From positions 1-64,000 of IMG/VR virus record IMGVR_UViG_3300035698_005399: a stretch of DNA of 64,000 bases; one strand, 5' to 3'. Both the position numbers and the translations under genes were made by a program. Shown in pieces: positions 3,795 to 56,608 of the stretch. The stretch is from a virus. Numbering within the stretch: the stretch's first letter is position 1; each line of letters opens with the position of its first letter. The notes beneath the pieces are model-generated. The model worked only from the letters and a program-made list of their open reading frames with translations, ran no database searches and had not been told where the DNA came from.

Positions 3795-3987
3795 TCAAAT
3801 TGAACAACTAGAAAGACAATTGTATGTAAGAGGAGGTAGGAGACCAGAGTATTTGGTGCTTAGTAAATCTGCATATAGGGATCTTAAAGAAGAAAGAGGT
3901 ATACCTGCAACAGAAGAAATTCCAATGTACAGGGGATACTTTATCTACTTAACACCTACAGAGGACACAATTATTCATTTTAGATGA
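3769..3987 (+). CDS. Hypothetical protein
   Basis: ORF coupled to its neighbours. ATG at 3769 preferred. Confidence 0.6.
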   Translation: MNLTISIVDQIEQLERQLYVRGGRRPEYLVLSKSAYRDLKEERGIPATEEIPMYRGYFIYLTPTEDTIIHFR

Positions 3988-37552: not shown

Positions 37553-39806
37553 GAAATATAACAAAATGACCTTTGCTGATGTTAGCAAGGTAATGGCTCG
37601 TAAGTATAAGGGTCAAGACTTTGATCCTATTGCACAAAGGACATTAGACATGCAGATGCAAGAACTAATGGCTTTAAATGAAGCTGCTAAGCCACCAGAA
37701 CCACAAGGTATGCAATTTGCTAACGGTGGTTCTGTAGATGATACACAAGATAATAAGAAAAGTAAAGCTGAGCTTAAAAGAGAAGAAAGAAGCAGATTTT
37801 CTGCAAATAACCAAGCAATATTTAGTGAAGAATTAGATAATGCTGGAATATTTGGTCTTAAACGAGCACAGATACTAGCACAAACAGCATTAGAATCTGG
37901 AAATTTTGGGGAAACATATGGTAATCTATCAGAATATGGGGGAAATACTGAAGCTGCTGCCAGAAAATATTTTAAAAGATATGATGGCAAAAATGGAAAT
38001 ACAGAACCAGGTGATGGTTATCGCTATAGAGGTAGAGGTAATATAATGACTACTGGAAGAAAGGGGTACAGGGAAGCTGGTGAAAGATTAGGATTAGATT
38101 TAGAAAACAATCCTGATCTATTATTAGACCCCCGTAATGCTGCTTTAGCCGCCATAGATTATTGGGAGACCAATGTTGATGCTAGAATGAAAGGAAACTA
38201 TTCAGATACAGCAACAGCCACTAGGGCTATTAGAGGAGATACAGGAGATACATTTCCCGAAGAAGCTCATTTTGAAAAAAGAGAAGCTTATTTTGCTAAA
38301 CTTTCAAAATCAAATTCTGATAAAGCGGTTATAGTAAAACCAGAACCAGGGGGATATAAATGGAATCCTCAACGTAAATATACAACACCTCAAGCAGAAC
38401 AAGCAAAACCACCAATGATAATGAAATATGGAGGATATCACAGAAATGTAAATAGAAGAAGTCTATCAACTGGTGGAAATTTATCAAAGATGAGCCCGTT
38501 GTTTAATAAGCCTTGGTTAGATGGTATGGGACGTGGTGCTGTTAACAGTGTATTAGGGGAAGCAGATAATCAAATGCAAGCGACAATTAATAGTAGTCCT
38601 TATAGTAGAAATATTAGAGCTGCAAATCTAACAAATTCATTAGCTCCAGATGTTAGTAATATGAATTTTCAAGAATCACTTGAAACTGTAGCAATGGCAA
38701 ATATGAATTTTCCAAGATTGCAAAATTTTATTGGAACAGGAGGAATAAGTAACACAGTAGCACAACCTAGTCCAGGTAATATTAATAATCAAGGACAAAC
38801 GAGTCAAGCACAACAAGTTGCTATGAGGAATACACAAATACCTGGAGGGACTAATGGTCTTGGGAGCAATACATGGTATCCTCAACCAAATCAAAGAAGT
38901 GCACAAGCAGCACAACGTGTTCAAACAGGACCATTTCAAGATAATGCTCCAGCACCAATGCCAGCACCATCACAAGGTCCAGTTGTACAATTTCCACAAC
39001 AATCTAATCTTTTAAACACACCTAATTATAATGCCTCATTGACTCCAGATTATAGCAATCCTCCTCCACAAGAAGCAGATCTAGCTGATCCCACAACTCC
39101 ACAACAACGTCAAGGATTGTTTGGTGATATTACTACCGGAGATAAAATGCAATTGGCAAGTAGTATTCCTAGTGCAGCATATAATTTAATGCAGTCCTTT
39201 AAACCAGCAGAACAATATTCTCCTACTGTAAATGAACAAGCTGGTAAAGCCATGTCTCAATTAGACAACCTTAGTATTGATATGCAACCATTAATTAATC
39301 AAAATAATCTAGCATTTAATACTGCTAGAAGACAACTTGGTAATCAAATGGGCGGTGGAGCATTAGCAGCTAATTTAGCTAATTTGACTTCCAATACTAA
39401 TCAGAATATGAATCAGGCTCAATTGTCTGGTCAACAACTAAATAATCAGTATAAGACTCAAGCCGCATCTACACGCATGAACTTGGGTGAAGCTGATAGA
39501 GCAGCAGCAGAACAGTCTAGAGGACTTAACATTGCAGCTAAGGCTACTAAGCAGAACTTTGCAGCAACAGCAGCAGGTCAACTTGGAGAAGGATTGAATC
39601 AATCTGGACAAGCTCTTAACTCAGGCAAGTTTAATAAACTAGTAACAGGCTTGGCTAAATCTGCCAACTTCTACTTTAATTCAAATACTAATACAATTGA
39701 TATAGCATCATATAAAACAGATCACCCAGATGAATACGCTGCTGTTCTAGCACAATTTGGTGGTGATGAAAAGAAAGTAATAGCATACTTCCAAAAGAAA
39801 GGATAA
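37542..39806 (+). CDS. Putative ejected cargo protein with GH19 (chitinase/lysozyme-like) domain
   Basis: LAQTALESGNF, GN...GDGYRYRGRG...TG...Y, NPDLL.....AA..A..YW. Gln/Asn-rich C-terminus. Confidence 0.8.
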   Translation: MLNKKYNKMTFADVSKVMARKYKGQDFDPIAQRTLDMQMQELMALNEAAKPPEPQGMQFANGGSVDDTQDNKKSKAELKREERSRFSANNQAIFSEELDNAGIFGLKRAQILAQTALESGNFGETYGNLSEYGGNTEAAARKYFKRYDGKNGNTEPGDGYRYRGRGNIMTTGRKGYREAGERLGLDLENNPDLLLDPRNAALAAIDYWETNVDARMKGNYSDTATATRAIRGDTGDTFPEEAHFEKREAYFAKLSKSNSDKAVIVKPEPGGYKWNPQRKYTTPQAEQAKPPMIMKYGGYHRNVNRRSLSTGGNLSKMSPLFNKPWLDGMGRGAVNSVLGEADNQMQATINSSPYSRNIRAANLTNSLAPDVSNMNFQESLETVAMANMNFPRLQNFIGTGGISNTVAQPSPGNINNQGQTSQAQQVAMRNTQIPGGTNGLGSNTWYPQPNQRSAQAAQRVQTGPFQDNAPAPMPAPSQGPVVQFPQQSNLLNTPNYNASLTPDYSNPPPQEADLADPTTPQQRQGLFGDITTGDKMQLASSIPSAAYNLMQSFKPAEQYSPTVNEQAGKAMSQLDNLSIDMQPLINQNNLAFNTARRQLGNQMGGGALAANLANLTSNTNQNMNQAQLSGQQLNNQYKTQAASTRMNLGEADRAAAEQSRGLNIAAKATKQNFAATAAGQLGEGLNQSGQALNSGKFNKLVTGLAKSANFYFNSNTNTIDIASYKTDHPDEYAAVLAQFGGDEKKVIAYFQKKG

Positions 39807-39807
39807 T

Positions 39808-41802
39808 ATGATCTCACCAGGAATGCAACCCGCACAAGGGCCAAGTCAACATAAATTCTATGAATTACCAGCTAATGAAATATTTAAGCTGGTTAATCAA
39901 AGACAATCAACTTATGACGTACAAGCAGAAAAACTTGGTGCCATGAGTGATATGATGAGTGCGTTAGACATTCATGAAAATTATCATCCAGAATATGGTA
40001 AGCAGGTAGAGGCTATTACTAGTGAAATTGATAGATTAACTAATGGTCAACATGACCTAACACAACCAGATGGGATTCGTTCACTAAACATGCTTAAGCG
40101 CCGTGTAGGTAGACAGTTTGGTCCAGATGGTGACTTTGGCATTATGGCGCAAGCAACTAGTCAATATAGAAAACAAGCTGCTCAATATGATGAAACTTAT
40201 AAAGATAATCAGAGATGGGCCGCTGCTTATAAAGAAGGATTATCACCCGCAGGATTAGAAAAAGATCCCATTACAGGACTTAGAAATCTTACACCCTCAC
40301 AGTCTTTATTTGCTGCCGAACCCGTAACACAAGAAGCCATAAATAAAGCTAGTATACAAGCCATCAGCGCGGTTGCTTCTAGTACTATTGGTCAAGAACT
40401 TGGAATTGTGGATGTTGAAGGTTTAGTTAAAGTCCTTAAATCAAGTTCAACCGAAGCCGTTCAAAAAAAGGAATTAATGAGGATATTGGATACATATCTA
40501 GATGGTAATGGTGAATTGACTAAAAGTAGAATGATTGAAAATTTGATTGATATGAAGGGAAATCCTATATTTGATCAAATGTCTGAACAAGAAAGATTAG
40601 AAGATGCTGAAGAAATGGCTAGAGAAGATGTGCTATCTATAATTACAGGCATAGCAGATCCCGCAGCATGGGAGAAAATTAATAATTCAATCAGTGTGCT
40701 TAGTGGAGATGACAAAGACGACGGGAATAATATAAATGATCCTAGTGCAAAATATGAACCGGCTAAACCTGGAAATAAGGATGATGAACTAACTGGAAAA
40801 AAAGGACAAGAAGCACTAGGTCTTGTTAATTGGGACGGAAAAAATAATTCTATTCCTCCTGATTTTATGGAATATCACGATAAGGTTGAAGAACGTATTC
40901 TAAATGGTGGTGGCCATAATACAGTAGAAATAAGAATGCAACAAACATATGATAGATATGAGCGTGAAGGTAATGAAAAAGGTGCCGCTAAAATGTTAGA
41001 GAATATAAAATCACATGCTCAAGAAAGATATGATAAAGAATATGGTGGTAATAGAAAAAAATATGAAGAAATCACAACTAGATTAAATGACAACGGGATT
41101 ACATTTGCTACACCTGAAGAAGAAATTGCATTTGTACAAGAAGCTTATACAAATGTGTCTAGACAACTAAGTGCTCCTGTATTCATACCTAGAAATCAAT
41201 TAAAAGATAGTTGGTCAGGATTAAAAACTTCACTTGAAGAGGTTATGACTGTTAATCTTGATATGATGGTTACTCCTCACGATAGTTATTCTAATGAACC
41301 ACAAAAAATACATAAGTTTATTGCTGGGCCAGAAGGATTAGGACATGGGGTAGAACCATACGAAGCAAAAAGATTTACAAATCCACAAATTACTGGTATT
41401 CGAGATGATGGAAAGATAATAATGAAAGTTACTGTAAAGCACGGTAAAGTTCAAGAAGACGTATCATTTGCAACGAAAAGTAATATGGAAGCATTTACCG
41501 AATCCACACGATTAAATAGTCAAGTATATGACATTCTTAATGATGAAGATAACAAATTAGCATTGAGCATGGGGGAGGCAATTGATCTGTATACTCCCGC
41601 AACATATATGGTTACTGATACTGAATCAGGTGAACAAATTATGTTAGAAGAACCAAAAGTACAATTGGTATTAATTAATCCAGAAACACATGAGTTGTTT
41701 AGTGAGCCCCATGTCATAATGGATGGTGAATATGATATGCCATTATCAAGCTATAGAAGGCAAAACGAACAATACTTGATGGAAGTATTATCACAATATT
41801 AA
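39808..41802 (+). CDS. Putative ejected cargo protein
   Basis: 664-aa helical ORF between the cargo and vRNAP genes. Confidence 0.65.
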   Translation: MISPGMQPAQGPSQHKFYELPANEIFKLVNQRQSTYDVQAEKLGAMSDMMSALDIHENYHPEYGKQVEAITSEIDRLTNGQHDLTQPDGIRSLNMLKRRVGRQFGPDGDFGIMAQATSQYRKQAAQYDETYKDNQRWAAAYKEGLSPAGLEKDPITGLRNLTPSQSLFAAEPVTQEAINKASIQAISAVASSTIGQELGIVDVEGLVKVLKSSSTEAVQKKELMRILDTYLDGNGELTKSRMIENLIDMKGNPIFDQMSEQERLEDAEEMAREDVLSIITGIADPAAWEKINNSISVLSGDDKDDGNNINDPSAKYEPAKPGNKDDELTGKKGQEALGLVNWDGKNNSIPPDFMEYHDKVEERILNGGGHNTVEIRMQQTYDRYEREGNEKGAAKMLENIKSHAQERYDKEYGGNRKKYEEITTRLNDNGITFATPEEEIAFVQEAYTNVSRQLSAPVFIPRNQLKDSWSGLKTSLEEVMTVNLDMMVTPHDSYSNEPQKIHKFIAGPEGLGHGVEPYEAKRFTNPQITGIRDDGKIIMKVTVKHGKVQEDVSFATKSNMEAFTESTRLNSQVYDILNDEDNKLALSMGEAIDLYTPATYMVTDTESGEQIMLEEPKVQLVLINPETHELFSEPHVIMDGEYDMPLSSYRRQNEQYLMEVLSQY

Positions 41803-41806: not shown

Positions 41807-44800
41807 ATGAGATCAGTTAATGCTGGTGGTTCTAAAGAGCCAATTAAAACAGGAGAAGTAGTTAATTCAGGTAATACTGATAATTCAATTGAATTTAAAA
41901 AATTAAGATCTGTAAACCCCTCATCGGGTACAAGTTTTTATGCTCCTGATCCAAAAGGGCAACATCAAGGATTAAATCTAGAAGATACTTATAATCAAGA
42001 ATTAGTAAATAAGGTTATTGCAAATAATCAATCAGGTTATGATAAAGCATTTAATGCTATTGTTGGTGGTATTGCATCTGGTGGTTTAACTGCTGTTGAA
42101 GACTTGAGTTATATGGCTCAATCTGCCGCAGACCTTCTCAGTAAAGGTAAATTGATTGATGAGTGGGAAAGAAATGCTGTTGCTGAAGCAATGCAAAAAG
42201 CTAAAGAAAACTTATCAGAAGCGTTACCTATTTATGGTAATCCTATGGGATTTTGGAATTCTACTAAATCAGTACTTGATTCAGCTATTGGATTTGCATT
42301 ACCCGGCGCTTTGGCTATTAAAGGTGTGTCTGCTATTCAGAAACTACCAAGAGCCTTACAGCTCGCAACACGTTCTAAGAGAGCACATGCTTATTTAGAA
42401 ATGATGCGAGCTAGTGGTGGAGTAGAAAGAATTACTAATGCTCTTGCCGCAGGTACTTTACAGAACCATGCTGAAGGTGTTATGATGGGAATGGAGGTAT
42501 ATGAAAATACTTTAAATAATCAATTAGAAGCAAATCCTAATGCTACAAAAGAACAAACAGATAGATATGAATTAGCAGCTAATGATGCTGCTGATAGATT
42601 TTTAGTGGCTAACAGAGCAATGATTTTAAGTGACGCGTTTAGTTTACATGGTATTTATCAAGGTAAACAAATGGTGCGTAATTTAATGAATGCTCCAGGT
42701 TGGCAAAATAGATTTCGTCAATTTGGTACAAGCTTAGTTAAACCTAATGCTGACAACCTAATTTTACAAAATGCTAAAGAAGGCGTTGAAGAAATCTATC
42801 AAGGTGTACAACAAAAGGAACAAGAATATCAAGCTTTAAAGAGTGCTAATTTAGATATTAGTACATATGAAGCAGAAACGTTTGATAGAATTTGGGGCTT
42901 TATTACAGAACCCACTACATTATATGAAGGACTATTAGGATTTGTTGGCGGTGGCGCACAGAGAATTATAACAGAGGCCGCAGCAGGCAAATTCTCTTCA
43001 TCATCTAGAGCACAAAAGGCTCAAGCATATGAACAACAACAAGCAGTAATTCAAGCATCACAAGAATATCTAGATGGTTCATTGCGTGATGTTAGAAAAG
43101 TTGTAAATTTTGTAGAGCAAGCATCAGGAACAGAGTCTAGTGTACTAGGCGAAACAGTAATGGATAAAAAATTCATTGAAATTGCTGTAATGAACTTTGA
43201 AGCAGGTACCACGGAATCATTAGAAAGACAATTAGATGCTATTATTGAGAATGAAGAAGGTACTTATGAAAAAGAAGCTATTAGTGATGCTAGACGACAT
43301 AAAGAATTATTAGGCAAATTAGAAACTCAATATATTAAATTTGCTAAGTATGAAAATCAATTAACTTTATTTGATAATAGACAAGCATACGATCTAACTA
43401 ATAGATATGCTGATGATGTTAACAAGAGAAAGCAAATAGCATTTACAACATTACAAAAAGAAGCTGCCTTATTAGTTGAAGGACAAACTATTGCTCAAGA
43501 TGAAAATGGTGTTATTAAAAATGCTCCATTCATACTTGATCCTACTTCAGATACTTTAATAGGTGTTGATGATGCAGCTAAAGAAAAATATGAAAAGGCT
43601 CTAAATCAATTAAAAGATACAGAAGCTTACAAAGAGTGGAAGGCTTTAAGTAATCAACATGATAAATTACTTGGTAAAAGAAAACTATTAAATGATGCAT
43701 ATAAAAGAGATATTGATCCAACCAGACAAGTAGATTTATACAGAGTTAGAAAAGAAAAGGAAGAAAAAATTGTTAAAAGGGCTGCAGAAATTGTTCAAGA
43801 AGAAATTGATGCTGCACAAGAAGCAGCAGTAAATGAAAGTATAGAGAAGAAAAAAGCAGATGCTCCAACAAAAGCAAAAGCTAAGCCTACAGAAACCACT
43901 GAAGAAAAAACTACTCCTCTTAGTGAACAAGAAGAAGCTGAACAATCATTTCTACCAGTACCTCTTGCTACTAATGAAGATGGTACTACACAAGAAGGAC
44001 AAGATGAATCTACTACTGAATCATCATTAGAGGCCATGTCTAAAGAATTGACATCTACTGGTCTTATGACTGCTCCTGAACTTGATAGAGTTGATGAGGC
44101 TAGAAAGATATTAGCTAAAATTAAAGCTGATATTGCAGAAGGTATTAAGAATGGTTTAACTGTAGAACAAATTGTAGCTCAGGTATTGTCTAAAGGATAT
44201 AATTTTAGTTCAGATCAAATTGATAGTTTATATGATTATATTGAATCGCGTATTGAAAGATATAATAGATTAGGCGCACGAGATTCTTTAGATCCAATTG
44301 GTGATCTTAGAGAATTACATGAGGCTGAAGCATTAGCTGAAACAGAAGAAGAAAAAGGCGAAGTTGAAATTGCAATTGCAGAAATAAACAAGCCTTCGGT
44401 ATTTGCACCAGTTGATGCTCAACAATTATTTGATCATTACATAGAAACTATTAAAGGAGCAATTACTCCTTGGAGTACAATAGAAGATATTATTGAAGCT
44501 CTTAAAGCTTCTGATGCTGATTTTGCTGATAGATATGAAAGAACTGATAAAGAAACTTTTCATGCTAAAATTGATAACTTAGTTACTGAATTTCTTAATG
44601 ATGCGTTTGAAGAAGAAGTTGACCAAAATCAAAGACGTTTAGAAGACGATAGACAGAAAGATGAAGTTACTCAAGAAAAAGAAGATGCTGTTGAAAAAAT
44701 TGATGAAAAAACCAAAGAAAGTACTGTTCTTAATTTGGAAGGTGCTGTTATTGGATTAACATATAGAGCTAGTATTTCGAGTAGTGGTGATGTTAATGCT

Positions 44801-47800
44801 GAAACAATTGAAGACTTAGAGGCATTTATTTTTGATAACCCTTGGTATAATAGTCTTATTCTTGACAGAGAGCATATTAAGGTTGGTTCAAAGCTTACAT
44901 TAAGAGTAATAGACCATCGTAGAGATGGTAAAAAATGGACACATAAAGTAAAAGGCGTTGATGTAAACCAAGATGTATTTAAGGAAGAAGTTCCTATTGA
45001 AGAATATATGGACAAAGTATACATTGGTGCTTTTGATAGCAATGATGAAATGATTGGTTTAGTATATGCTCCATTCCAAGTATCAAATTTTAAAGGCAAG
45101 CAAGCTAATAGAAAAATTAGACAGGCTGTTGTTGAAAATGGTGATGTTGAAATGGAAGTAGATACTATTACGGCTGGTGCGATAGCTCGTATGGGCAAAA
45201 GGGCTGCTTTCGCAACTAATATGCCAGATAGTCCTATTTTATTAAATGATGGTACTATATTTACAGGCGATCACCCTCCTAAAGGATTTCCATTATTATT
45301 TAAAGGAGAAGATATTAAGTCATATAGAGGTACTACATTTACTTATATTCAAACAGTGGATGGGCCAATTCCAATTCCTTTAAACGTAAATAAAGCTAGA
45401 AATATAGATGGCGTTATAGACATCTTGATTAAAGCTACAGAAAGCTTTTTCACACAAGATACTAAATCAGCAACAGAATTTAGAGACACCATTAAAGAAA
45501 AAACCAATATTGATATATTTAGTGAAGCAGGATTAAGAGCTTTCTTTAACAGATATGTATATGCTGCTGATGGCGGTATTATGAGCGATATGGCAAAAAG
45601 AAAATCTACATATGGTGGAGTTTCTATTTGGAATAGAGAAGGAGTATCTATTGTTGAATATGGTTTAGGTGGTGAAAAGAAAACAAATAGTTTCAGTGCT
45701 GCAAGAATGGAATCTAATCCAGAAAACTTGGGTGTGGCTATGAAATCTTTAAGAAATGCATTAGCTCATACTTTCCTTAAAGTAAATAAAGCTAATCTGG
45801 ATGGGTTAGATAGCAAATATACTGTATTAACTCTTGACAAAAATGGTAGCATTCATGATATAAATGAAGGAAAAACATATAGAGAATTTCTTGCAGAAAA
45901 AGTATTTGCAACAAATGTTGCTACACCTAAGCTAAGCAATGGTAAGAGAGCACACACCATTAGTGATGTGATTACATTGAAACCTGTAGGAGAGCAGCTT
46001 AAAAGAGCTGTAGAGAATCCTACTGTAGAAGTAAATGAAAAAGAAGAAGAAGCTATAGAAAATACTGCTGAAACTAGAGCAAAAGCAATCTTGGCCAAAA
46101 GGAAAGCTAAAAAAGCTAATACTGACTTAGATGATTATCTACCAGATTTTGATTCTGATAAATCTGATACTAAATCATCACCAGACATTATAACTATAGA
46201 TAATGACGATTTATTAATTGAACATCTTACTTCTACGGAACAGATTCAAATTATAGATTATCTTGCTTCTGAAATTGCTAATCTGGCATTACAAAGTGAT
46301 AATCTTAAAGCACAAGATGCTGATATAAGTGAAGTATTTAGAGGTTTTGAAAAAAAGCTTAGAGATTCTGTTGAGACACAAGAATGGTTGGCTGGAATAG
46401 ATGACACATTTAATTTAGAAGCAGCTAAAGCCAAAGTTAAATCTCTTATTGCTAGAATTGATTTTCTTGAAAAATTAGTTAAAAATAGATTATCTGTTAT
46501 TGGTGTTGTTAATGAAAATAACACAGAAGTTGCCGATACTTTAATAGAACGTAATACTTATAGTGAAGGATTTAGTCTTACATTAAATCCTAAAGATACT
46601 GCGGGTGCTAAGCTTAAGTATTGGTTGATGCGAATCAAGATGGAAGCCAATGGAGAGACTGTTCAATCAGATTTTACAGAAACCACAGGTGTAGAATTTG
46701 ATAGATATATCCCATATGATCATGCTTTTGAAGTATTGAGTGAAATTACTGCAGGACATCCTGCTGATTGGGATACTATGTTAGAAGTCATTAGAATAAA
46801 TCAAGGTAATCTTGTTTGGTTACCAGGTTTATATAATGAGATAAAAGATGTAAAAGACGAACAATTACAGAATCAGTTTATTACTGCTATGACCAAGCGT
46901 AATACAAACATGAAGAAAGCAGCATTTCGTCGTAATGCAGAAAATGAATTCTTCTTTTCTGTTATAGATGAAAACTCTAACTCTGTCACACAAGCTACTT
47001 TGGAAAAATGGCAAATTAACTTCTTGAATAATGAAAAAATGTTCATTCATAAAGAAGGCAAAAAGACATTAGATAAAGATCGTTTAAAAGAATTAGAAAG
47101 AATTCATGATGCATTAACTCTTCGTTTGATTAAAAGTGAAAATGTGCCACTAGCAGAAATCAATGAGTTGTTAGGAGAATTTGGTATCTCTATATCTAAA
47201 AAGATTTATGATAAGCTTGCTTCTAAAAATAAAGATGGTCATTTAACTCTTTTTAGAAATGGTGAAAAATACACTTATAATATAGCTCAAGTTTTTCAAG
47301 GATTTGGTCCATTTAGTAAAAAAATATTAATTGCCCCATTAGCAAAAGATGATAGTATTACTGACGAGTTTAACTTGTTTAGTGATAACAGTTTATTTTC
47401 AATGGCTAGATATGTTGGTCAACATGATCCAACACTTTCTTCTAACAGTTTTAGAGTAGGTGATAAAAGTATTTATGCATATCGCCTAAACAACTTGATT
47501 ACTGAAAGAATAGAAGAATTAAAAGACCCGCGTAAAGCTTTGCCATTAATGAAAATGGCTTACAACAAACACGCCGGTATTTTAGAACACATGTATAAAA
47601 AAGAAAAAGGTGAATTTGTCTTTGATGAAAACGGATTACCCATTATCAAAGATGAATCATTTGTTGACTTGTTTCAAATATCAGACTTATCACTAGAAGC
47701 ATTAAAAGACCTAACCTCTTCATTAGAAGGTGCTGGTCTTATAGATCTAGATGAAGGTAGTCATGAATTTGCTAAAGTTATTTTATACCAAGCTAAACAA

Positions 47801-50800
47801 AGAAGACTCAAGCACTCTCAAAAAAGAGTTGGTACTATGTTATTTCCAACTTTTTCTGATAAGACTGGAGCAGACATGGTGCAAACTTATCTTGAAGATG
47901 TAGTTTTAAATGATGATGGTACTTTATCAGATCAAACTGCAGAACTAATCTATCAAAGAGTAGTTAGACCTGAAGTAAATAGAATTAAAGCAAATGCGAA
48001 TCGTAAAGAAAAATATAACATCAAGTCATATAATGCTGGTGCCGCGTTATTCTATGCGTTTCCAGAACTAAATGATAGAGAAGCATTCCCAGAACTATAT
48101 GATAAGGGTATACTTAAGCCTATGGATATAGTTTCAAAGGCCGCTATTAGAAGTGCTATTAAAGCGCACTATCAAAAACTAATTGATAATAAAGTAGCGG
48201 ACTGGAAGAAGCATGGGTTAGATGATAAAATGGATAAAAACTATAAGAAATTATTAAGAGAATCTATTGCCCAAAAAAATATCACTCCAGAACATATGCT
48301 TAGGGCTGCTGCCGCTGATTTTGAAGTAAACTATACATTGAACACAGCAGATATGTTCAAATTGTTTCATGGTGATCCAGCATTATATTTTAAAATTAGC
48401 GATAAGGATGTCAAAAACAAACAAAAAAACAAAAAGAATTTAAATGCTGCTGACTATATACAAATTGTAAAAGATACATTTACTAACGTTGGTAAACGTC
48501 TAGCTGCAGATATTGCACCGGGTCAAAACATTGCATATGATTTCAAATCAAGTTTCAGAATGGTATTGTTACCAGATCAGAAAAGGGAATCAACGTCTTT
48601 ACCTTATTACGCAAGACTTAAGATCAAAGGACTCAATGACTACAAAGAAATTGAAGGCGCAGATGCTCAAGAATTTACTACATTCGCTGAGCACTTGGAG
48701 ATACTTTTCAAAATGGGTAAGCTACCTACTGGAGTTTATAAAAATGCGTTAGAGAAATATACCACCTGGGTCAAAAAAGAAAAGGCTGGAATACCTCTTA
48801 CAAAAGATGATTATATTAGTAAGAAAGATTTAGGATTGGTGATGCAACCACTTAAACCAGTATATACTAATAACATCGCAACCGATGGTGTTTATCGTAG
48901 AATTTATATCAAGTCTTCATCCATTCCATTACTTCCACAGTTAACCAACGGTTTAGAAATAGACAAGTTGCGTAAAGCTATGGAAAGAGATGGTATTGAT
49001 AGAGCTGCATTTGGTACTGCGTTTAAAGTAGGTGCTCCACTTAATCCTATTGAGGGCATGTGGAATCCCGATAGTACAATTAATGAAGATACACTTAGCT
49101 TCAAAGATTCTCCTGCAGTATTAGTTCTTCCTAGAAAAGGATTTAGAATTCAACAAGAGATTCCTGATAAGGATGAACAGGTTAACCCTGGTTCACAGGA
49201 AAGAAAGCTTCTATTCACTGACCTATTGCATATAGATGGAATGAAAGAGTTGAAAAATGAATTTAATTCCGCTTGGGATTCATTATTTGAATTGCGTAAA
49301 AAGGTATTGTATAACGAACTAAATGATGAAAATAATAAACTAGATTTCAATAAGCTTCAGACAATGTTAAAGGAAGAAGCTGTATCTCGCAACTGGCCTA
49401 TCAATGATAGACTAGCATTAGAAGTAATGAATGATCAGTTCACACTGCCTCTATGGGCAATGCAGTCTAGAGGACGTATTGAAGCATTACTTAATAGTAT
49501 TATTGACAATAAAATTCGTAAGATTAAGTTTCCAGGCAAATCATTTGTACTTGCCACAGAAGAAGGTTTTAGACAACTACAGGGAACTGATTTAAAAAAC
49601 AGTGGTATTAAGTTTAATAAATATTGGAAGGGCGAATTAACACATACTTCTGCTGACAAACAAACAACTGATGTAATTGTTCCTTGGAAATATACTAATG
49701 ATAAAGGTGAAAAAATACCCATCCCTTTAACTTCAGAAGGACTGGTTGATACTGATAAATTAGGTGATGAAGATTTAGGTAGAATGTTTGGATTCCGTAT
49801 CCCAACACAAGGCTTGAATTCAATGGCTAACATTCGTGTAGTAGGGTATTTACCTGCTGAAATGGGTGATGTTATTATTGCATCTAGAGATTTTACAAAG
49901 CAAATGGGTTCTGACTTTGATGTTGATAAATTATATTCATACAGAAAGCATTACTATACTGATAATCAAGGTAAGATAAGAACCATTACAGAAAAGACTA
50001 TTGCTGCAGATCTCCCCAAACATATGCAAAACAAGCTTGTAGAAATGAAGTTGATTAATAAAATAATTGACATTCACTATCAAGTAATGGATAATTCAGA
50101 TGTGGAAATCCAAAAAAGAATTGCAGAACCACTATCTTTTCAAGAACTTAAAAAACAAGACGCTGAAGGTAATGAAATTGGTCTTGCTAAAAAACATGAT
50201 GATTTAAGAAATCAAAATACTGATAAGAGTTTCTTCTCACCAATGTCAAGTAATTATCAAAGAGGTAAATTGATTAATGGTACTGCTGGTAAAGCTGGTG
50301 TTGGCGCATTCTCGTTAGACTCTGTGTTTAATGCTATGATTCAAGGTAGAAATGTAACTGTTACTAATTTCCAAAAGACTATGTTTGGAATTACAACTAA
50401 TGGTGATTTAAGTAGTCCGTTTGTTCTATCAGATAATGGTAGAACTAAAGGAGAAGTTGTATCAGGATATCAGTCTGCTGCAGTTGATAATGAAAACGAA
50501 CAGATTCTTGACAAGTTAAATATTAATAAACATACATTTGCTTTCATTCGTGCAATGAATCAATTAGGGTATGAAGAATCTCATGCGGCAGCTATTTTAA
50601 ATCAGCCAATTATTAGAAAACTGGTTGCGAGATTAGGTGCAGCAGAATCTCCTTTGTCTGATGATCAAGTAAATGATGATAGTGTATTACTAGACGAACT
50701 TACAAAAGAATTTGAAGAAATCAAAATAAACCCAGATATAAACTTATCTGTTGAAGAATATGAAAAGGCTATCCCAGGTGATAAGAGTGTTCCATACTAT

Positions 50801-53800
50801 GCACAAATTCAAATAGAGGCTATTGAAAACTTTCTTACTATACGTAAATTAGGTAGAAGATTAGGTACCTTTCAAGGCTTAATGAATACAGACTCTGCAG
50901 GTATTGGTAAGAACATGATGTTTACTTTTACCAAGTATAATGATGCTCAACAAGCGGCCAAGCAATCTATTACTTTAGATGGAGAAAAAGGTAATATTAC
51001 GAATATGGATTCGTTAATTAATCCCAATGCAGAAACTCCTACTAATGAATTTTCTAGTATGTCTAACAGACATATATTAAAGACTGCCTATGAACTGTTT
51101 GGAGTATTTTTTCCATATAATACACCAGGCTTTAGAGAAATGGTTCACCAAACTAGTACTGTGTCCAATGAAGACTTTGATAGTAGTTTGAACCAGAAGA
51201 CTAATAATAGAAATAAATTATTTAGTCACTTTATGAGCTATACATATAGTGCAATGTTTGAAGATAATGAAAAATTATATTTTGATTCAAAAGATAAAAA
51301 TGCACTAGGACAGAATATTTTAAAGTTACAACAATCTGAAATCAAAGGAAATAAATTCTTACGAAAACTTAAGGTTAGGTTACAGAGAGGAATAATTCCA
51401 ACAACCATTACTATTAATGCTACTAAAGAAGATTCAAGTCAAGATCTTGACACTCACATTGCATTTACTGAGCTATTAAATTCTACACAAGAAATTGATG
51501 GGGTTAGGGTCAGTGATATGGCTAGAGATCTTATTAGTTACGCATACTTAACTGGTGGACATCAACAAGCCACACAGTTTACAAAATATATTCCTGTATC
51601 ATATTTAGTGAATACAGATTTTGCTGACAAATTGAACAAATTAGATTTCAATAACAAGGCCGCTTTATTAAATATGAATCCCAATATTCCAATAGAAGAA
51701 CCCTTCTATAAAAGATTGGCCGGATTTACTATTCAATATGCTCAACATAATCCTTGGGTGCTTACACAAGATTCTACATTAGATCATAACAAAGAAGTTA
51801 TCTACGATAAAACTATTGTAGATGAAGCTCCTAGTATTGTATCAAAAAGAGTAGAAGAACCCAGTGGTAAAGCCAAATGGGTAATCTTCATAAAGACTGA
51901 TATTAATGGTGAACCCGCGCTTATGCGTACTGATAAACTTGGTGGTTCTCAAACAAGAGAATATAACAAGAATGAACCCACATCTAACAATACTAAATTT
52001 GATAAGACTAAGAATAAGAAAGTCCTTCAACCTAGTCCTAAAAAAGTTGATTCTACACAACCTAAATTGGTTGAACCAGCAAATAAAACTAATCCATTAA
52101 ATATTACTGCAGGCAAGAATACTGATAATATATTAATTAGTATCTTATCACATCCTGATATTTCACCAGAACTAAAAGCATACGCACAAGAGCTTGCCGA
52201 ACTGGGTATTCTTAATGACAATATTACATGGAAGATACTTGATAAAAGTAATCCGGCTAAAGGAAAGCATCACGGAAATGCTAAAGGTTCTACTATATTT
52301 ATTAATCCTGATAGACATGCTACTGCAGAAGACTTAGCAGAAACCATATTACATGAATTGACACATGCTATTACAGCATATCAGATTCACTCATATGAAA
52401 AGAATAAAAACTCTGTATCACCTAAGATGCAAGAGTCAATGGCTAAGCTGGAACAATTCATGGATAAAGCTCAAGAAATATTTAAAGAGCAAAAAGAAGA
52501 ATTAAAGAAGAAACTAAGTACTGAGGAATTTAATAAATTAGAATATGCGTTAGGATTAAATGCGGCTAATAAAACACCTTTATCTGGGGTAAGAGAATTA
52601 CTTGCTACAGCACGTACTAATAAGACTGTAAAAGACTTTCTTAATAATAATATATGGCAAGGTAAGAAATCTTTAATGGAAAGATTCTTAGAACTAATTA
52701 GTAGAATCTGGAAAGACCTTGGTATTAAAAATGGTGGTGATGTGAGCAAAGGAGTATTGGCAGAGATGTATAATATTGTTCAAGAAAGTAATAATGTAGC
52801 AAAAAAGCCAGATATTAATGATTCAGCATTAGGAATTAAAGATGATGCTTATTCTGATAAATTACCAGCTTTTACTGGAGATCAATGGAATGCTAAGAAT
52901 GCTGCTGAGATTGAATTAGGCATGCGTCACAAAGATGGTGCACCTAAGAGATATTCTAATTACGAAAGAGCGTTAGCTAGGCTACAGGCATTACGCAAGA
53001 AGCACCCACATAAGAAGATGAAGATGGCCAAGGTCATGGGTGAACCAGGAGATAATAGAGTCTATTATTCACCAGCTTTAGAAAATGAAATGTATGATGA
53101 TTATCTTCCAATGTTTGATTTGGATGAAGAATCAAGAGTATATGCAGACTTAGAATCTGTTATCAAGTCACAATTACAAGAGGTTAATAGAAGAATTGGT
53201 GAATATAAGAACATTCTTAGGAATGAGCATATGTCTATAGCAGATAAGAGAGATGCTGTTGCTGCAATGGATAGGTTAAACACTAGAAGAAAAGATTTAG
53301 CTGAGTCAGTTAAAGCTTCTAAAAAACTAATCTCACCAAGAGAATTAGGTCCATTTGGAGAAAAGCATTTACAAGAGATTGAAGAAATTGTTGATAAGGA
53401 TGATATGAATGCTTCTGAGATAGAATATGCAAATAGACTAATTCACTTATGGCAAGCTGCTGGCAAGAGAGATTTAAGACCAGATGAAGAACATGTCTTC
53501 TTAACAAGAGAAGAATTAGAAAACGATATGTGGTTTGATGGTGATGAAACTTTTGCTGGATTCAATTATTATGCTAATAAAGCTGCTAAGTTTAAAAGTA
53601 AGCTGGCTAATAGAGAACGCGCTATTGTTGGAAATTTTGTAAGAAAGTATACTAGAACTGAATTATCAGATGATGATATTTTTGGTGCTATTACTGATGC
53701 ATACTTATTATCCTCAATGACATTAGATGTATCTAGACATAATGATCCAATGCTTAATGCAATCTTTATTGGAATTAAATCTAAGATAAAAGCTGCTAAC

Positions 53801-56608
53801 TTAGAATATGACCGCAAAGTAAAAGAATTTACAAAACTTATCAAAGTTGCTTTACCTGAGTTAAAGAAATTATCAGAAGGAAATAACCCTTATGAAATTT
53901 TCCTACAAAAGGATAAAGATGGTGAACTTACTGGGGGATTAATTTTTCCATTTAGTCAAGACTTCTTTGATAAAAGATCTGAACTAAGACATAAAAGTCT
54001 TAAATCTGATAAAGGATATGAGCAATTTGTAGATTGGAAGAGATCTAATCTAATGATAATGGACCCAAGGATTCTATTTCCAGATGTTGAATTATTCAAG
54101 CGTCAACAATATAGTGATGCTATGCGCGAAAAACATATTGCTGAACTAAAAGAACAAATGGGAGAAGAAGTATATGAAAAGTATTACAAAGAATTAGAAA
54201 ATAAAATTGGTCAATTCAAAGCTACCTACGAATATAAGAAGATGACTTCTACTGATGAAGAATTTGAAAATTGGAATAAAGAAAATTCACCATACTGGTA
54301 TGCTAGACTAATCAATGATAAGAATAAAATTACAGGTTCTGATGGTAAGAATATCTATTCATATGGATGGGAATATACTGTAGAGATTCCTAGAAAAACT
54401 AATAAAGTTGGTAAAGAAACAGGCTGGTATGATAAGAACTATGATAAAGTTCATCAGAATAAAGCTGTTAGTGAGTTGTATGAATTTATATCAAGTCAAT
54501 TGACTGAAATGACCTCATATTTACCACCACACATTACCAAAGATATGCGTATTAATACCCTACCAGACTTAGAAGCAGCATGGTTAGAAGAAGTAAATGG
54601 TAGTGGAATGTCTGCAGCAGTAGGCATGGGTCGTATGATGGATGATTTAAAAAGAGTACTACGTTCTGAAGATAACTTAGAACAAATCAATCAACCATTA
54701 GATCCATTAACAAAGCAACAAGAACGTTTTGTTCATGCTAGAAATCCAAGTATGTTGGAAAGTAAAGCTACTCAAAAATTAAATATTGCCAAAGCTAAAT
54801 ATCTAGCGGATACAGGAAAGAACATGCCATTCAAAGTGCAAGTTGCTACCAAGAAAAAGATTGTTGATGAATTAGTAAGAAGCTCAAGAAGATCCTTAGA
54901 TTTGGAAAAAATCCTAAGAGGATATATTGCATCATCTACATTGTTTAAGCATAAATCATCTTTACAAGATGAAGTCAAGCTTGTTGAGAATGTATTTATG
55001 AAACGAGTGGAATATGAAACAAATTCTGTTGGTGATAAAGTAACAGATGGCTATGGTAGAGATATCTTATCTCGTGCTAATCTAGCAAACTATAAGTCAA
55101 TGCTACAATATCACTTGGATCATTTCTACAATCTTCCTGCTGAAAAAATTATGGGTAAGACCAATAAAAAACTATTGCTCACTGAAGAAAAAGCGGTTAA
55201 GCAAAGTATTGATGAAGCACAAACTGCATTAAATGAATCTTTAGCAGCAGGCTCTATTGAGCAAGAAGAATATGATGTACAATCTAAATACTTAGAAGAA
55301 CAACTTAAAGGACTTGGTGGTGTAGTAACTGGTTCTGGTATGGTAAATCTAGTATTGCGTTATATCCACTTTAAAGGTATGGGTTGGAACGTATTCTCTG
55401 CATTTTCTAACATGGGATTTGGTGTAATGGCCAACCTAGTAGAAGCAGCAGATGGTAGAACATTTACTACAAAAGAATTCTGGCAGGCAATGAAAATTGT
55501 TAAAGGTAGTATATTTAAAAATGCTACATTTAATCAAATGCAAACTGCAGATGCCATTAAGATTAGAAGCATCATGGATAAATATGACTTCTTAAAGACA
55601 AGCAAGAACGAAGTATATCGTTCACAACTGCATAATCAATTTGAAAAAGGTAGATTTTTATCTCCATATAACTTAACTGATAGATCAGAATACTTTAACC
55701 AAGCACCTGTTGTTGTAGCTATTATGTTACATCAAAAGATTAAGAATCTTAAAGGAGAAGAAGTTAGTCTATGGGAAGCTTTTGATAAGAATGGTGAATT
55801 CAATACTGCAGAATATGGAACAAATTGGCTGGTAGAAAAAAAGGGGGGAAGTCCCAGCCCTGAGATATCTTTCAGTATTCAGGTTGACCAAGCAATTAAG
55901 AGAATTCATGGTAACTATGATCCAGAGAGTCCTTTGCAACTTAAAGAAACAGCTTTAGGTAGAGCATCTGCACAATTTAGAACATGGTTGTTTGAAGGTA
56001 TGGCTGGTAGATTTGATACAAGAGGTGATAAAAATGGCATCTATGATGATGCTGCTGGAATTTATCTTAAAGGTCGTTATGTTTCATTATTTCAAGTAAT
56101 GAGAGGTAATGAGGAACATAGCGGAATTAGTAATCTACTATTTACTACAAAACAATTATTTAGAAAACTTGCATCTGCTGCTCCATTTGTAGATATGCCT
56201 ACAGAATTTGATAAAAGATTCAGTGAGGTAGATGCTGCTAACATGAGAGGCAACTTACAAGAGCTTGTTACATATGGTGTCTTATTAGGTCTTGCTGCGC
56301 TTCTAAAAGGTGCTGCTGGAGATGATGATGATATGGCAATTGCCAATTTATTACTCAATCAACTTAATAGATTACAAACGGATGTTGAAATGTATATTAA
56401 TCCTGCCACTTGGACTAAAACTGTATTAGATGATCCAATTCCTGGTACAAAAGTAATATCAGATTTTAGCAGATGGATGATTTCAGCAACTGAATTTGTT
56501 CAAGGTAAAGATGGTTCTGGAGAAAAAATGTTTGATAATACACTCAAAATGACTCCGGGTCCTGGTCAAATTAAAAGATTATTTGACGCATCAGAACAAG
56601 TATATTAA
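41807..56608 (+). CDS. Giant virion polyprotein: crAss-type double-psi beta-barrel RNA polymerase, zincin metallopeptidase and flanking domains
   Basis: FRIPTQG followed by GSDFDVDK (DFDVD, aa 2703-2707, nt 49913-49927); SAAVDN; HELTH (aa 3516-3520); C-terminal QFRTW and paired hydrophobic helices. Confidence 0.9.
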   Translation: MRSVNAGGSKEPIKTGEVVNSGNTDNSIEFKKLRSVNPSSGTSFYAPDPKGQHQGLNLEDTYNQELVNKVIANNQSGYDKAFNAIVGGIASGGLTAVEDLSYMAQSAADLLSKGKLIDEWERNAVAEAMQKAKENLSEALPIYGNPMGFWNSTKSVLDSAIGFALPGALAIKGVSAIQKLPRALQLATRSKRAHAYLEMMRASGGVERITNALAAGTLQNHAEGVMMGMEVYENTLNNQLEANPNATKEQTDRYELAANDAADRFLVANRAMILSDAFSLHGIYQGKQMVRNLMNAPGWQNRFRQFGTSLVKPNADNLILQNAKEGVEEIYQGVQQKEQEYQALKSANLDISTYEAETFDRIWGFITEPTTLYEGLLGFVGGGAQRIITEAAAGKFSSSSRAQKAQAYEQQQAVIQASQEYLDGSLRDVRKVVNFVEQASGTESSVLGETVMDKKFIEIAVMNFEAGTTESLERQLDAIIENEEGTYEKEAISDARRHKELLGKLETQYIKFAKYENQLTLFDNRQAYDLTNRYADDVNKRKQIAFTTLQKEAALLVEGQTIAQDENGVIKNAPFILDPTSDTLIGVDDAAKEKYEKALNQLKDTEAYKEWKALSNQHDKLLGKRKLLNDAYKRDIDPTRQVDLYRVRKEKEEKIVKRAAEIVQEEIDAAQEAAVNESIEKKKADAPTKAKAKPTETTEEKTTPLSEQEEAEQSFLPVPLATNEDGTTQEGQDESTTESSLEAMSKELTSTGLMTAPELDRVDEARKILAKIKADIAEGIKNGLTVEQIVAQVLSKGYNFSSDQIDSLYDYIESRIERYNRLGARDSLDPIGDLRELHEAEALAETEEEKGEVEIAIAEINKPSVFAPVDAQQLFDHYIETIKGAITPWSTIEDIIEALKASDADFADRYERTDKETFHAKIDNLVTEFLNDAFEEEVDQNQRRLEDDRQKDEVTQEKEDAVEKIDEKTKESTVLNLEGAVIGLTYRASISSSGDVNAETIEDLEAFIFDNPWYNSLILDREHIKVGSKLTLRVIDHRRDGKKWTHKVKGVDVNQDVFKEEVPIEEYMDKVYIGAFDSNDEMIGLVYAPFQVSNFKGKQANRKIRQAVVENGDVEMEVDTITAGAIARMGKRAAFATNMPDSPILLNDGTIFTGDHPPKGFPLLFKGEDIKSYRGTTFTYIQTVDGPIPIPLNVNKARNIDGVIDILIKATESFFTQDTKSATEFRDTIKEKTNIDIFSEAGLRAFFNRYVYAADGGIMSDMAKRKSTYGGVSIWNREGVSIVEYGLGGEKKTNSFSAARMESNPENLGVAMKSLRNALAHTFLKVNKANLDGLDSKYTVLTLDKNGSIHDINEGKTYREFLAEKVFATNVATPKLSNGKRAHTISDVITLKPVGEQLKRAVENPTVEVNEKEEEAIENTAETRAKAILAKRKAKKANTDLDDYLPDFDSDKSDTKSSPDIITIDNDDLLIEHLTSTEQIQIIDYLASEIANLALQSDNLKAQDADISEVFRGFEKKLRDSVETQEWLAGIDDTFNLEAAKAKVKSLIARIDFLEKLVKNRLSVIGVVNENNTEVADTLIERNTYSEGFSLTLNPKDTAGAKLKYWLMRIKMEANGETVQSDFTETTGVEFDRYIPYDHAFEVLSEITAGHPADWDTMLEVIRINQGNLVWLPGLYNEIKDVKDEQLQNQFITAMTKRNTNMKKAAFRRNAENEFFFSVIDENSNSVTQATLEKWQINFLNNEKMFIHKEGKKTLDKDRLKELERIHDALTLRLIKSENVPLAEINELLGEFGISISKKIYDKLASKNKDGHLTLFRNGEKYTYNIAQVFQGFGPFSKKILIAPLAKDDSITDEFNLFSDNSLFSMARYVGQHDPTLSSNSFRVGDKSIYAYRLNNLITERIEELKDPRKALPLMKMAYNKHAGILEHMYKKEKGEFVFDENGLPIIKDESFVDLFQISDLSLEALKDLTSSLEGAGLIDLDEGSHEFAKVILYQAKQRRLKHSQKRVGTMLFPTFSDKTGADMVQTYLEDVVLNDDGTLSDQTAELIYQRVVRPEVNRIKANANRKEKYNIKSYNAGAALFYAFPELNDREAFPELYDKGILKPMDIVSKAAIRSAIKAHYQKLIDNKVADWKKHGLDDKMDKNYKKLLRESIAQKNITPEHMLRAAAADFEVNYTLNTADMFKLFHGDPALYFKISDKDVKNKQKNKKNLNAADYIQIVKDTFTNVGKRLAADIAPGQNIAYDFKSSFRMVLLPDQKRESTSLPYYARLKIKGLNDYKEIEGADAQEFTTFAEHLEILFKMGKLPTGVYKNALEKYTTWVKKEKAGIPLTKDDYISKKDLGLVMQPLKPVYTNNIATDGVYRRIYIKSSSIPLLPQLTNGLEIDKLRKAMERDGIDRAAFGTAFKVGAPLNPIEGMWNPDSTINEDTLSFKDSPAVLVLPRKGFRIQQEIPDKDEQVNPGSQERKLLFTDLLHIDGMKELKNEFNSAWDSLFELRKKVLYNELNDENNKLDFNKLQTMLKEEAVSRNWPINDRLALEVMNDQFTLPLWAMQSRGRIEALLNSIIDNKIRKIKFPGKSFVLATEEGFRQLQGTDLKNSGIKFNKYWKGELTHTSADKQTTDVIVPWKYTNDKGEKIPIPLTSEGLVDTDKLGDEDLGRMFGFRIPTQGLNSMANIRVVGYLPAEMGDVIIASRDFTKQMGSDFDVDKLYSYRKHYYTDNQGKIRTITEKTIAADLPKHMQNKLVEMKLINKIIDIHYQVMDNSDVEIQKRIAEPLSFQELKKQDAEGNEIGLAKKHDDLRNQNTDKSFFSPMSSNYQRGKLINGTAGKAGVGAFSLDSVFNAMIQGRNVTVTNFQKTMFGITTNGDLSSPFVLSDNGRTKGEVVSGYQSAAVDNENEQILDKLNINKHTFAFIRAMNQLGYEESHAAAILNQPIIRKLVARLGAAESPLSDDQVNDDSVLLDELTKEFEEIKINPDINLSVEEYEKAIPGDKSVPYYAQIQIEAIENFLTIRKLGRRLGTFQGLMNTDSAGIGKNMMFTFTKYNDAQQAAKQSITLDGEKGNITNMDSLINPNAETPTNEFSSMSNRHILKTAYELFGVFFPYNTPGFREMVHQTSTVSNEDFDSSLNQKTNNRNKLFSHFMSYTYSAMFEDNEKLYFDSKDKNALGQNILKLQQSEIKGNKFLRKLKVRLQRGIIPTTITINATKEDSSQDLDTHIAFTELLNSTQEIDGVRVSDMARDLISYAYLTGGHQQATQFTKYIPVSYLVNTDFADKLNKLDFNNKAALLNMNPNIPIEEPFYKRLAGFTIQYAQHNPWVLTQDSTLDHNKEVIYDKTIVDEAPSIVSKRVEEPSGKAKWVIFIKTDINGEPALMRTDKLGGSQTREYNKNEPTSNNTKFDKTKNKKVLQPSPKKVDSTQPKLVEPANKTNPLNITAGKNTDNILISILSHPDISPELKAYAQELAELGILNDNITWKILDKSNPAKGKHHGNAKGSTIFINPDRHATAEDLAETILHELTHAITAYQIHSYEKNKNSVSPKMQESMAKLEQFMDKAQEIFKEQKEELKKKLSTEEFNKLEYALGLNAANKTPLSGVRELLATARTNKTVKDFLNNNIWQGKKSLMERFLELISRIWKDLGIKNGGDVSKGVLAEMYNIVQESNNVAKKPDINDSALGIKDDAYSDKLPAFTGDQWNAKNAAEIELGMRHKDGAPKRYSNYERALARLQALRKKHPHKKMKMAKVMGEPGDNRVYYSPALENEMYDDYLPMFDLDEESRVYADLESVIKSQLQEVNRRIGEYKNILRNEHMSIADKRDAVAAMDRLNTRRKDLAESVKASKKLISPRELGPFGEKHLQEIEEIVDKDDMNASEIEYANRLIHLWQAAGKRDLRPDEEHVFLTREELENDMWFDGDETFAGFNYYANKAAKFKSKLANRERAIVGNFVRKYTRTELSDDDIFGAITDAYLLSSMTLDVSRHNDPMLNAIFIGIKSKIKAANLEYDRKVKEFTKLIKVALPELKKLSEGNNPYEIFLQKDKDGELTGGLIFPFSQDFFDKRSELRHKSLKSDKGYEQFVDWKRSNLMIMDPRILFPDVELFKRQQYSDAMREKHIAELKEQMGEEVYEKYYKELENKIGQFKATYEYKKMTSTDEEFENWNKENSPYWYARLINDKNKITGSDGKNIYSYGWEYTVEIPRKTNKVGKETGWYDKNYDKVHQNKAVSELYEFISSQLTEMTSYLPPHITKDMRINTLPDLEAAWLEEVNGSGMSAAVGMGRMMDDLKRVLRSEDNLEQINQPLDPLTKQQERFVHARNPSMLESKATQKLNIAKAKYLADTGKNMPFKVQVATKKKIVDELVRSSRRSLDLEKILRGYIASSTLFKHKSSLQDEVKLVENVFMKRVEYETNSVGDKVTDGYGRDILSRANLANYKSMLQYHLDHFYNLPAEKIMGKTNKKLLLTEEKAVKQSIDEAQTALNESLAAGSIEQEEYDVQSKYLEEQLKGLGGVVTGSGMVNLVLRYIHFKGMGWNVFSAFSNMGFGVMANLVEAADGRTFTTKEFWQAMKIVKGSIFKNATFNQMQTADAIKIRSIMDKYDFLKTSKNEVYRSQLHNQFEKGRFLSPYNLTDRSEYFNQAPVVVAIMLHQKIKNLKGEEVSLWEAFDKNGEFNTAEYGTNWLVEKKGGSPSPEISFSIQVDQAIKRIHGNYDPESPLQLKETALGRASAQFRTWLFEGMAGRFDTRGDKNGIYDDAAGIYLKGRYVSLFQVMRGNEEHSGISNLLFTTKQLFRKLASAAPFVDMPTEFDKRFSEVDAANMRGNLQELVTYGVLLGLAALLKGAAGDDDDMAIANLLLNQLNRLQTDVEMYINPATWTKTVLDDPIPGTKVISDFSRWMISATEFVQGKDGSGEKMFDNTLKMTPGPGQIKRLFDASEQVY

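Follow-up and report, generated by a model that had tools for sequence, protein, structure and literature searches.

Recurring Seam Peptides in a Fused crAss-Like Cargo Protein as Candidate Cleavage Sites of Its Built-In Zincin

The Fused Cargo Protein

The window analyzed here is the first 64 kb (64,000 nucleotides; G+C content 34.5%) of an 83.5-kb IMG/VR virus record, IMGVR_UViG_3300035698_005399. In this window, a single open reading frame (ORF) encodes a protein of 4933 amino acids (aa) which is an all-in-one virion cargo block of the Crassvirales: it consists of an N unit, a two-barrel RNA polymerase (RNAP), an HExxH zincin, a small module, and a helical C unit (Table 1). The peptide DDYLPxFD recurs in the linkers (seams) in front of the RNAP and C-unit bodies, and the best single reading of the data, held at somewhat less than an even chance, is that these seam peptides are cut by the zincin on the same chain. 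The ORF and three copies of the motif had been described in an earlier note made from the sequence alone. Recomputed coordinates place all of them where it had put them, and the segments between the motifs (1441, 2233, 73, and 1162 aa) agree with its estimate. PHROG 16227, annotated as “virion structural protein”, matches the ORF (E 2e-72). The uncultured crAss-like phage probably packs and injects the 4933-aa protein, by analogy with homologues that occur in virions, as annotated in phi14:2 and as detected by mass spectrometry in crAss001 (PMC10172136), and because the ORF lies after the tail genes.

Table 1. Features of the 4933-aa cargo protein and their positions in the window.
Feature	Residues (aa)	Window position	Strand	Remarks
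Whole ORF	1-4933	41807..56608	+	single open frame; fused virion cargo protein
N unit	1 to ~1418	41807..46060	+	aa 67-620 resemble start of cr108_1 giant protein
SFLPVP	714-719	43946..43963	+	in K/E/T low-complexity linker within N unit; tentative
Seam 1 linker	1395-1469	45989..46213	+	charged; predicted unstructured; hypervariable in alignment A2
Seam peptide copy 1, DDYLPDFD	1442-1449	46130..46153	+	~26 residues before first confident helix of RNAP body
Two-barrel RNAP unit	1470-3383	46214..51955	+	6VR4 match by sequence and fold
Catalytic DFDVD	2703-2707	49913..49927	+	aligned with DFDID 1361-1365 of phi14:2 gp66
K/N/P-rich RNAP/zincin linker	3384-3440	51956..52126	+	seam without motif; phi14:2-type genomes split here
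Zincin-like domain	3441-3670	52127..52816	+	weak PDB matches
HELTH	3516-3520	52352..52366	+	metal-binding/catalytic motif by sequence; conserved in relatives
VRELLA with Glu3597	3597 (Glu)	52589..52606	+	candidate third zinc ligand; aligned with VKELVA of 9sfn_G
Weak seam copy (copy 2), SDKLPAFT	3683-3690	52853..52876	+	where stand-alone C-unit proteins of relatives begin; pLDDT 32-37
Small conserved module	3701-3760	52907..53086	+	between copies 2 and 3; local profile
Seam peptide copy 3, DDYLPMFD	3764-3771	53096..53119	+	pLDDT ~28; 4 residues before C-unit body
Helical C-unit body	3777-4933	53135..56605	+	AlphaFold2 mean pLDDT 82; mostly helical
pLDDT, predicted local distance difference test.

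The RNAP unit was identified by both sequence and fold. In a phmmer search against PDB it is matched by phi14:2 gp66 (6vr4_A, E 7e-17). An AlphaFold2 model of aa 1330-2529 matches the same structure by Foldseek (E 1.1e-30, prob 1.00, query TM-score (TMq) 0.53, 1220 columns), and this is the sole fold match below 1e-3 for the model; it covers aa 1330-2529, with the DFDVD half of the RNAP outside the model. The N unit resembles cr108_1 in tblastn over aa 67-620 (30% identity, E 7e-46).

The best solved match of the zincin region is an “internal virion protein” (9sfn_G, E 2.5e-4), and domain C1 of the C-terminal domain (CTD) of the virion RNAP (vRNAP) of phage N4 (residues 2202-2269) matches it weakly (E 0.025). 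No Pfam family matched the region above threshold, with SprT-like at 18.5 bits (cut-off 25.6) and Peptidase_M78 at 13.6 bits. Among aligned relatives the E and the second H of HExxH are conserved at 90% or more (alignments A2 and A3) and are followed downstream by a nearly invariant Glu. In the 4933-aa protein this would be Glu3597, which aligns with a Glu of 9sfn_G and is put forward on that ground as the third zinc ligand. The position of the zincin in the cargo block is mobile: in p-crAssphage gp45, crAss002 gp32, and cr118_1 it forms the end of the N-unit protein and precedes the RNAP, and here, in FpV4, and in phi14:2 it follows the RNAP.

A Repeated Peptide in Unstructured Linkers

The earlier note had placed the motifs in charged linkers, and their flanks are indeed charged and hydrophilic. 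They also lie outside the predicted folded domains, in low-pLDDT linkers at unit borders. In the aa 1330-2529 model, pLDDT is 25-36 over aa 1330-1468 (about 27 at motif 1), the confident RNAP body starts from about aa 1470, and its first confident helix spans aa 1476-1496. In a second model (aa 3660-4859), pLDDT stays below 50 over aa 3660-3776 and the first confident C-unit helix starts from aa 3776. SFLPVP, in the N unit, may be a degenerate fourth seam peptide; in three relatives (P0053, P0093, and P0132) a third copy of their own peptide is found at aa 826-918.

Could the repeat be functionless, a chance match of two compositionally similar linkers? On its own, a 7-of-8 octamer repeat is weak, since 21% of shuffles of the 4933-aa protein yield some such pair, and the generalized patterns used here were picked post hoc. 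The pattern D.LP.F, set after the data had been seen, occurs three times compared with 0.039 expected; all three copies are at seams, and none of 20,000 shuffles reached three. A six-frame scan of the window found D[YK]LPxF confined to the 4933-aa ORF. At the DNA level, the two DDYLPxFD octamers are identical at 21 of 24 positions and their flanks are unrelated; the similarity is thus confined to the motif, and no larger segment was recently duplicated. A second copy of the 60-aa module was sought upstream of motif 1 and was not found. When the two seams are compared with each other, the motif alone matches (score 45, reached by 1.6% of shuffles). Moreover, the best ungapped 7-mer shared by seam 1 and seam 2 scores 33 in this protein, above every control window (maximum 26), and this is the clearest case among the proteins compared. 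With the same pairing found in independent relatives, in the form of different peptides, the chance explanation is already disfavored and is considered very improbable. The three D.LP.F copies together with the private pairs in relatives indicate a genuine seam peptide under constraint.

Paired Private Peptides in Relatives

Stronger support, independent of the repeat within the 4933-aa protein, comes from its relatives. Those used for the seam comparison are less than 50% identical to each other. The exact expression [DE][YFW][LIVM]P.[FYW] is nearly absent from them, and the idea of a DDYLPxF conserved across the family was dropped in favor of peptides private to each lineage. A looser pattern, [DE][FLYMIW][SALMTV]P, also picked post hoc, occurs in the windows just before the two bodies in 11 of 38 proteins (1.2 expected) and 24 of 114 proteins (4.2 expected). 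Further comparison used the best ungapped 7-mer score between seam 1 and seam 2, which has a mean of 22.5 for two seams of one protein and of 20.0 for seams of different proteins; none of 20,000 permutations reached the observed within-protein value (p<5e-5). In 7 of 30 proteins, seam 2 ranks within the top 5% of the windows of the same protein (binomial 6e-4), and about 7-12 of the 30 representatives have clearly paired seam peptides.

The cores of these private peptides are almost confined to the seams over some 5000 aa. They include ADLPL in P0047 (aa 1326 and 3706), SEDLP in P0095 (aa 1332 and 3648), DEDxSP in P0019 (aa 1278 and 4012), QASPA in P0015 (aa 1401 and 3511), [ND]LPLF in P0027 (aa 1408 and 3684), and DLAP in P0053 (aa 826, 1440, and 3863). 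No convincing pair was found in FpV4, phi14:2, or crAss001, and profiles iterated across the seam wandered off to coiled-coil matches and passed over the motif.

From these comparisons, DDYLPxF would be the lineage-private member of a family-wide class, often of the form acidic-hydrophobic-x-Pro, and the seam peptides within one protein appear to vary jointly from lineage to lineage. As judged from the sequences, they would be read by a lineage-dependent factor. Sites that co-evolve with their protease are a signature of viral polyproteins.

Gene Borders in Split Relatives

An exhaustive HMMER search with aa 3400-4599 returned 572 homologues, either fused or stand-alone, including giants of 4400-7400 aa, RNAP-starting proteins of 3172-4408 aa, and about 65 stand-alone C units of 1100-1460 aa. 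A search of viral contigs for close relatives with a pattern from aa 3432-3898 found none, a homologue search with region 3380-3880 found a single distant polyvalent-like protein, and a locus search with P0013 found 4 loci. The claim of the earlier note that units separate elsewhere are fused here holds: they are encoded as 1797 + 2180 + 1421 aa in phi14:2 and as 4287 + 1596 aa in Flavobacterium phage FpV4. Separate unit genes are also found in crAss001 (gp50, gp49), p-crAssphage, crAss002, IAS virus, and cr118_1.

At the first seam, nine RNAP-starting representatives (3172-4408 aa) lack the N unit and start at about aa 1300-1425 of the 4933-aa protein, at least 19 aa upstream of motif 1. The start of P0003 maps to about aa 1423, some 19 aa before the motif; its DYLL (residues 24-27) coincides, by offset, with DYLP of motif 1 in alignment A2. 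In P0077, DYLP itself occupies residues 28-31, 28 residues from the N-terminus. At the second seam, residue 1 of the stand-alone C units maps to about aa 3575-3746 and their conserved body starts from about aa 3740-3830. The start of P0005 maps some 13 aa before motif 2, and FpV4 gp32 ends 222 aa past its HExxH, which puts the break between motifs 2 and 3. Counterparts of copy 3 in relatives read DIDFLP, IDYLP, IDYMIP, and GDFLP, and lie 40-220 aa inside the stand-alone C-unit proteins rather than at a gene boundary.

The proposal that the motifs coincide with gene boundaries of homologues is therefore borne out in part. The breaks of P0003, P0005, and FpV4 lie near motifs, whereas motif 3 is off-boundary and the proposal fails for the RNAP/zincin break of phi14:2, which precedes the zincin (the downstream protein has its HEIMH at residue 245); the matching seam of the 4933-aa protein has no motif.

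One further candidate seam site, IKNGG (aa 3640-3644), was rejected; it lies inside a conserved helix-turn of the zincin and its GG is not conserved.

Terminal Cysteines in Split Relatives

The 4933-aa protein contains no Cys. Most other fused giants are also Cys-free, as is N4 vRNAP (3500 aa). Three cargo-like ORFs directly before the giant (36254-37552, 37542-39806, and 39808-41802) likewise have no Cys, and they lack the seam motif; a 1453-aa ORF further upstream (31831-36192) has 16 Cys.

Split relatives follow a different rule. Their downstream proteins start with M-x(1-5)-C, often as the sole Cys in thousands of residues: 62 of 65 stand-alone C units have a Cys in their first 8 residues, which is usually their only one, and the same start is found in most RNAP-starting and zincin-starting proteins. 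The proteins upstream have a Cys in their last 1-10 residues at 14 of 15 junctions, drawn from 13 loci. The sole exception is IAS gp55/gp56, from a record with ambiguous bases. In crAss002 (L011, 10794-10900), gp32 ends with ..SFVCS and residues 33-35 of gp33 read M-S-C, as downstream cargo proteins usually start; gp33 probably begins 32 codons after its annotated start.

A precedent for such pairs of Cys is the pre-ejectosome of cyanopodophage A4, in whose solved structure a disulfide joins Cys5 of gp26 to Cys1715 of gp27 (PMC12002296), and virions of crAss001 contain disulfides. By analogy with A4, the terminal Cys of the split forms point to a head-to-tail disulfide. The fused protein lacks this feature, and a chain with no Cys is the state that the rule predicts for fused forms. 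No description of a terminal-Cys rule for crAss-like cargo was found in the literature searched.

Cleavage, Docking, or Another Protease

The combination of private seam sites and a conserved protease domain in one multi-unit chain favors cleavage by the built-in zincin. Several features of a polyprotein are seen: a protease domain on the chain (at the level of its sequence motif), a recurrent site in flexible seams, and joint change of the sites between lineages. One factor would read both seams, and the zincin of the same chain is its best candidate. The zincin would make its cuts at the peptide or beside it, once the chain has been packaged or injected, and release the N unit, the RNAP plus zincin, and the C unit; if SDKLPAFT were also cut, the ~80-aa module would be released too. 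Recognition of the peptides, its equation with cleavage, and the role of the zincin as the enzyme are all inferred. The general idea has precedents. The fused crAss-like “huge polyprotein” has been proposed to be cleaved, with the zincin possibly activating the RNAP (Drobysheva et al., 2020, preprint), and zincin-like peptidases of polyvalent proteins have been proposed to process them (Iyer et al., 2017; PMC5512222).

Several observations weigh against cleavage. Split relatives keep the motif class about as often as fused ones (~18% vs 24% at seam 2). In them the motif follows a small N-terminal leader, 25-220 aa into the downstream protein; it is therefore not required to separate the units. 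The RNAP/zincin seam (aa 3384-3440) holds no copy, a clear pair is seen in just about one quarter to one third of representatives, and few sequences align over the linkers, which makes their low pLDDT partly an effect of alignment depth. The terminal Cys suggest that selection favors linked units over separate ones. In N4 vRNAP, the RNAP, HExxH domain, and large helical domain follow one another in the same order, with a weakly related zincin; this polymerase is unprocessed when packaged (PMC5512222), and no degradation of the recombinant protein is seen (PMC13434306). Cleavage products of fused forms were not reported in the literature searched, and the phi14:2 authors also proposed peptidoglycan digestion as a role of the zincin (Drobysheva et al., 2020, preprint). 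Confidence in cleavage is kept below one half because split relatives keep the motif, N4 vRNAP stays uncut, one seam lacks the motif and pairs are in the minority, and linkage appears to be selected.

Retention of the motif in split relatives, where no cut is needed, and the uncut N4 vRNAP, packaged whole despite its zincin, make a serious rival of the idea that the seam peptide is an uncut short linear docking or joint motif at the start of each large unit, in a chain which stays whole. Possible readers would be a packaging adaptor, the portal or inner capsid, a neighboring unit, or a host factor after injection. The motifs have the make-up of linear motifs (acidic residues, an aromatic, and Pro) and lie in disordered acidic linkers; co-variation of the seams fits a co-evolving binding partner equally well; and the terminal-Cys rule with the A4 disulfide (PMC12002296) argues that continuity of the chain is selected. 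However, no partner is known, the motif is missing from the other Cys-free cargo ORFs of the window, which a shared packaging partner might be expected to read as well, and strict placement at seams beside a conserved protease domain is what is expected of a processing site. Docking is tentatively entertained, as a possibility of some weight.

The zincin-cleavage reading can be combined with the terminal-Cys rule, under which covalent continuity seems to matter and any separation would come late. This fits both the uncut chain and a model of release in the host. According to the latter, the cargo units would enter the head and exit through the tail as one covalent thread, held together by the peptide bond in fused forms and by a head-to-tail disulfide in split forms, and the zincin would then free the units at their private seam peptides. 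In split forms, a cut at the seam would remove the Cys-bearing leader. This full sequence of events is rather unlikely.

Lastly, the seams may be cut by another protease, of host or phage, while the zincin digests the cell wall or host proteins during entry. Peptidoglycan digestion is the alternative role given to the zincin by the phi14:2 authors, hydrolytic metallopeptidase domains occur in other podophage ejection proteins (A4 gp28), and the best solved match of the zincin (9sfn_G) is itself an internal virion protein. Nevertheless, the zincin is the only protease domain which always travels with the seams, and no match to a cell-wall-binding or known peptidoglycan-peptidase family was found. 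A host protease is also hard to reconcile with private, fast-changing peptides, because these imply a reader co-evolving with each phage lineage. This explanation is considered improbable.

Comparison With Known Systems

The cargo block of Cellulophaga phage phi14:2, g067-g066-g065 (GenBank gp078/gp077/gp076; gp66 is the virion RNAP, PDB 6VR4), contains the same units in the same order. It shares the RNAP homology in sequence and fold, the DFDxD motif, and a zincin in the block. It differs in being encoded by three genes (1797, 2180, and 1421 aa), with the second break before rather than after the zincin, in having Cys at the facing termini (..NTIC*/MACK.. and ..QECK*/MSCK..), and in lacking DDYLPxF. 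The nearest annotated relative is the cultured Flavobacterium phage FpV4 (gp32/gp33; 25-27% identity over RNAP and zincin). FpV4 gp32 likewise fuses N unit, RNAP, and zincin, and in gp33 EDDFEYMP stands between a leader and the body; however, the C unit has its own gene, Cys are found at the junction (..KNCN*/MACT..), and there is no clear pair of seam peptides.

A giant injected polymerase is also known from N4. Its gp50 (3500 aa; PMC13434306) has disordered linkers between the N domain, RNAP, HExxH domain C1, and helical domain C2, but its polymerase is T7-like, not two-barrel, and it is packaged and active uncut. Its two disordered linkers (aa 900-1010 and 2085-2140) share KEPVNQS/KEPVNPD, with a borderline score of 26 (top 6% of windows). 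The A4 pre-ejectosome resembles the split relatives in the head-to-tail link between consecutive ejection proteins. In A4 this link is a disulfide, whereas in the fused, Cys-free 4933-aa protein it is the peptide chain itself.

Internal head proteins of phages are cut at short consensus sites, as by T4 gp21 on proteins with a capsid-targeting leader and in the inner-body proteins of phiKZ-type phages. The likeness lies in internal or injected proteins, a leader, a short recurring site, and a phage protease. In those systems a prohead protease acts on sites across many head proteins, whereas here the candidate enzyme is itself a domain of the cargo protein, to which the site is restricted.

The kind of protein described here, a cargo polyprotein with a zincin, is already known, and cleavage of the fused forms has already been proposed in print. 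The papers on the crAss-like “huge polyprotein” and on polyvalent metallopeptidase (MPTase) proteins concern the same fused cargo with an HExxH zincin and propose self-processing, but name no site. The specific candidate site is new, and neither it nor the paired private seam peptides occur in the literature searched.

Further Features of the Cargo Block

A local profile finds the small module (60 aa) in 8 relatives (E 1e-9 to 1e-28), in most of which D-Y follows. In the 4933-aa protein it has low pLDDT and few homologues in the alignment. The stretch between the zincin and the C body is a hot spot for insertions in the family, with inserts of up to ~1480 aa. P0048, P0090, P0029, P0033, P0016, and P0002 carry inserts of 500-1500 aa there, some of them helicase-like (..HKSQG..), and P0002 has Pfam helicase and PF18760 domains.

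For the C unit, a Foldseek search against PDB gave nothing below E 0.1, a wide structure search gave generic helical hairpins alone (Z ~10 over 60-75 residues), and sequence and profile searches against PDB gave no match or coiled-coil noise. Beyond the crAss-like phages, a tblastn search of a phage database gave it a single match, in Leptolyngbya phage Lbo-JY46, to a hypothetical protein (24.5% identity, E 6e-7; window 55295-56065, C-unit query aa 816-1072). By sequence, this match hints at a link to the ejection proteins of cyanopodophages.

Two other observations concern the ends and catalytic core of these proteins. The N-terminus of the 4933-aa protein reads MRSVNAGG and then SKEP, with aa 4-8 at 41816-41830. 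In cr108_1 (L004, 24600-24930), DFDxD is interrupted: one ORF ends with ..AKAGSD at 24625 and the next reads (L)YDIDKMY from 24916. The insert of ~290 nt within DFDxD may be an intron.

Significance for the Crassvirales

No other phages are as abundant in the human gut as the Crassvirales, whose infection starts with an injected RNA polymerase. Whether activation of this polymerase needs proteolysis was left open by the authors of the phi14:2 structure. A concrete candidate site which can be mutated makes the question of cargo processing testable. Furthermore, the seam pattern provides a rule for dividing unannotated proteins of 4000-7000 aa into units.

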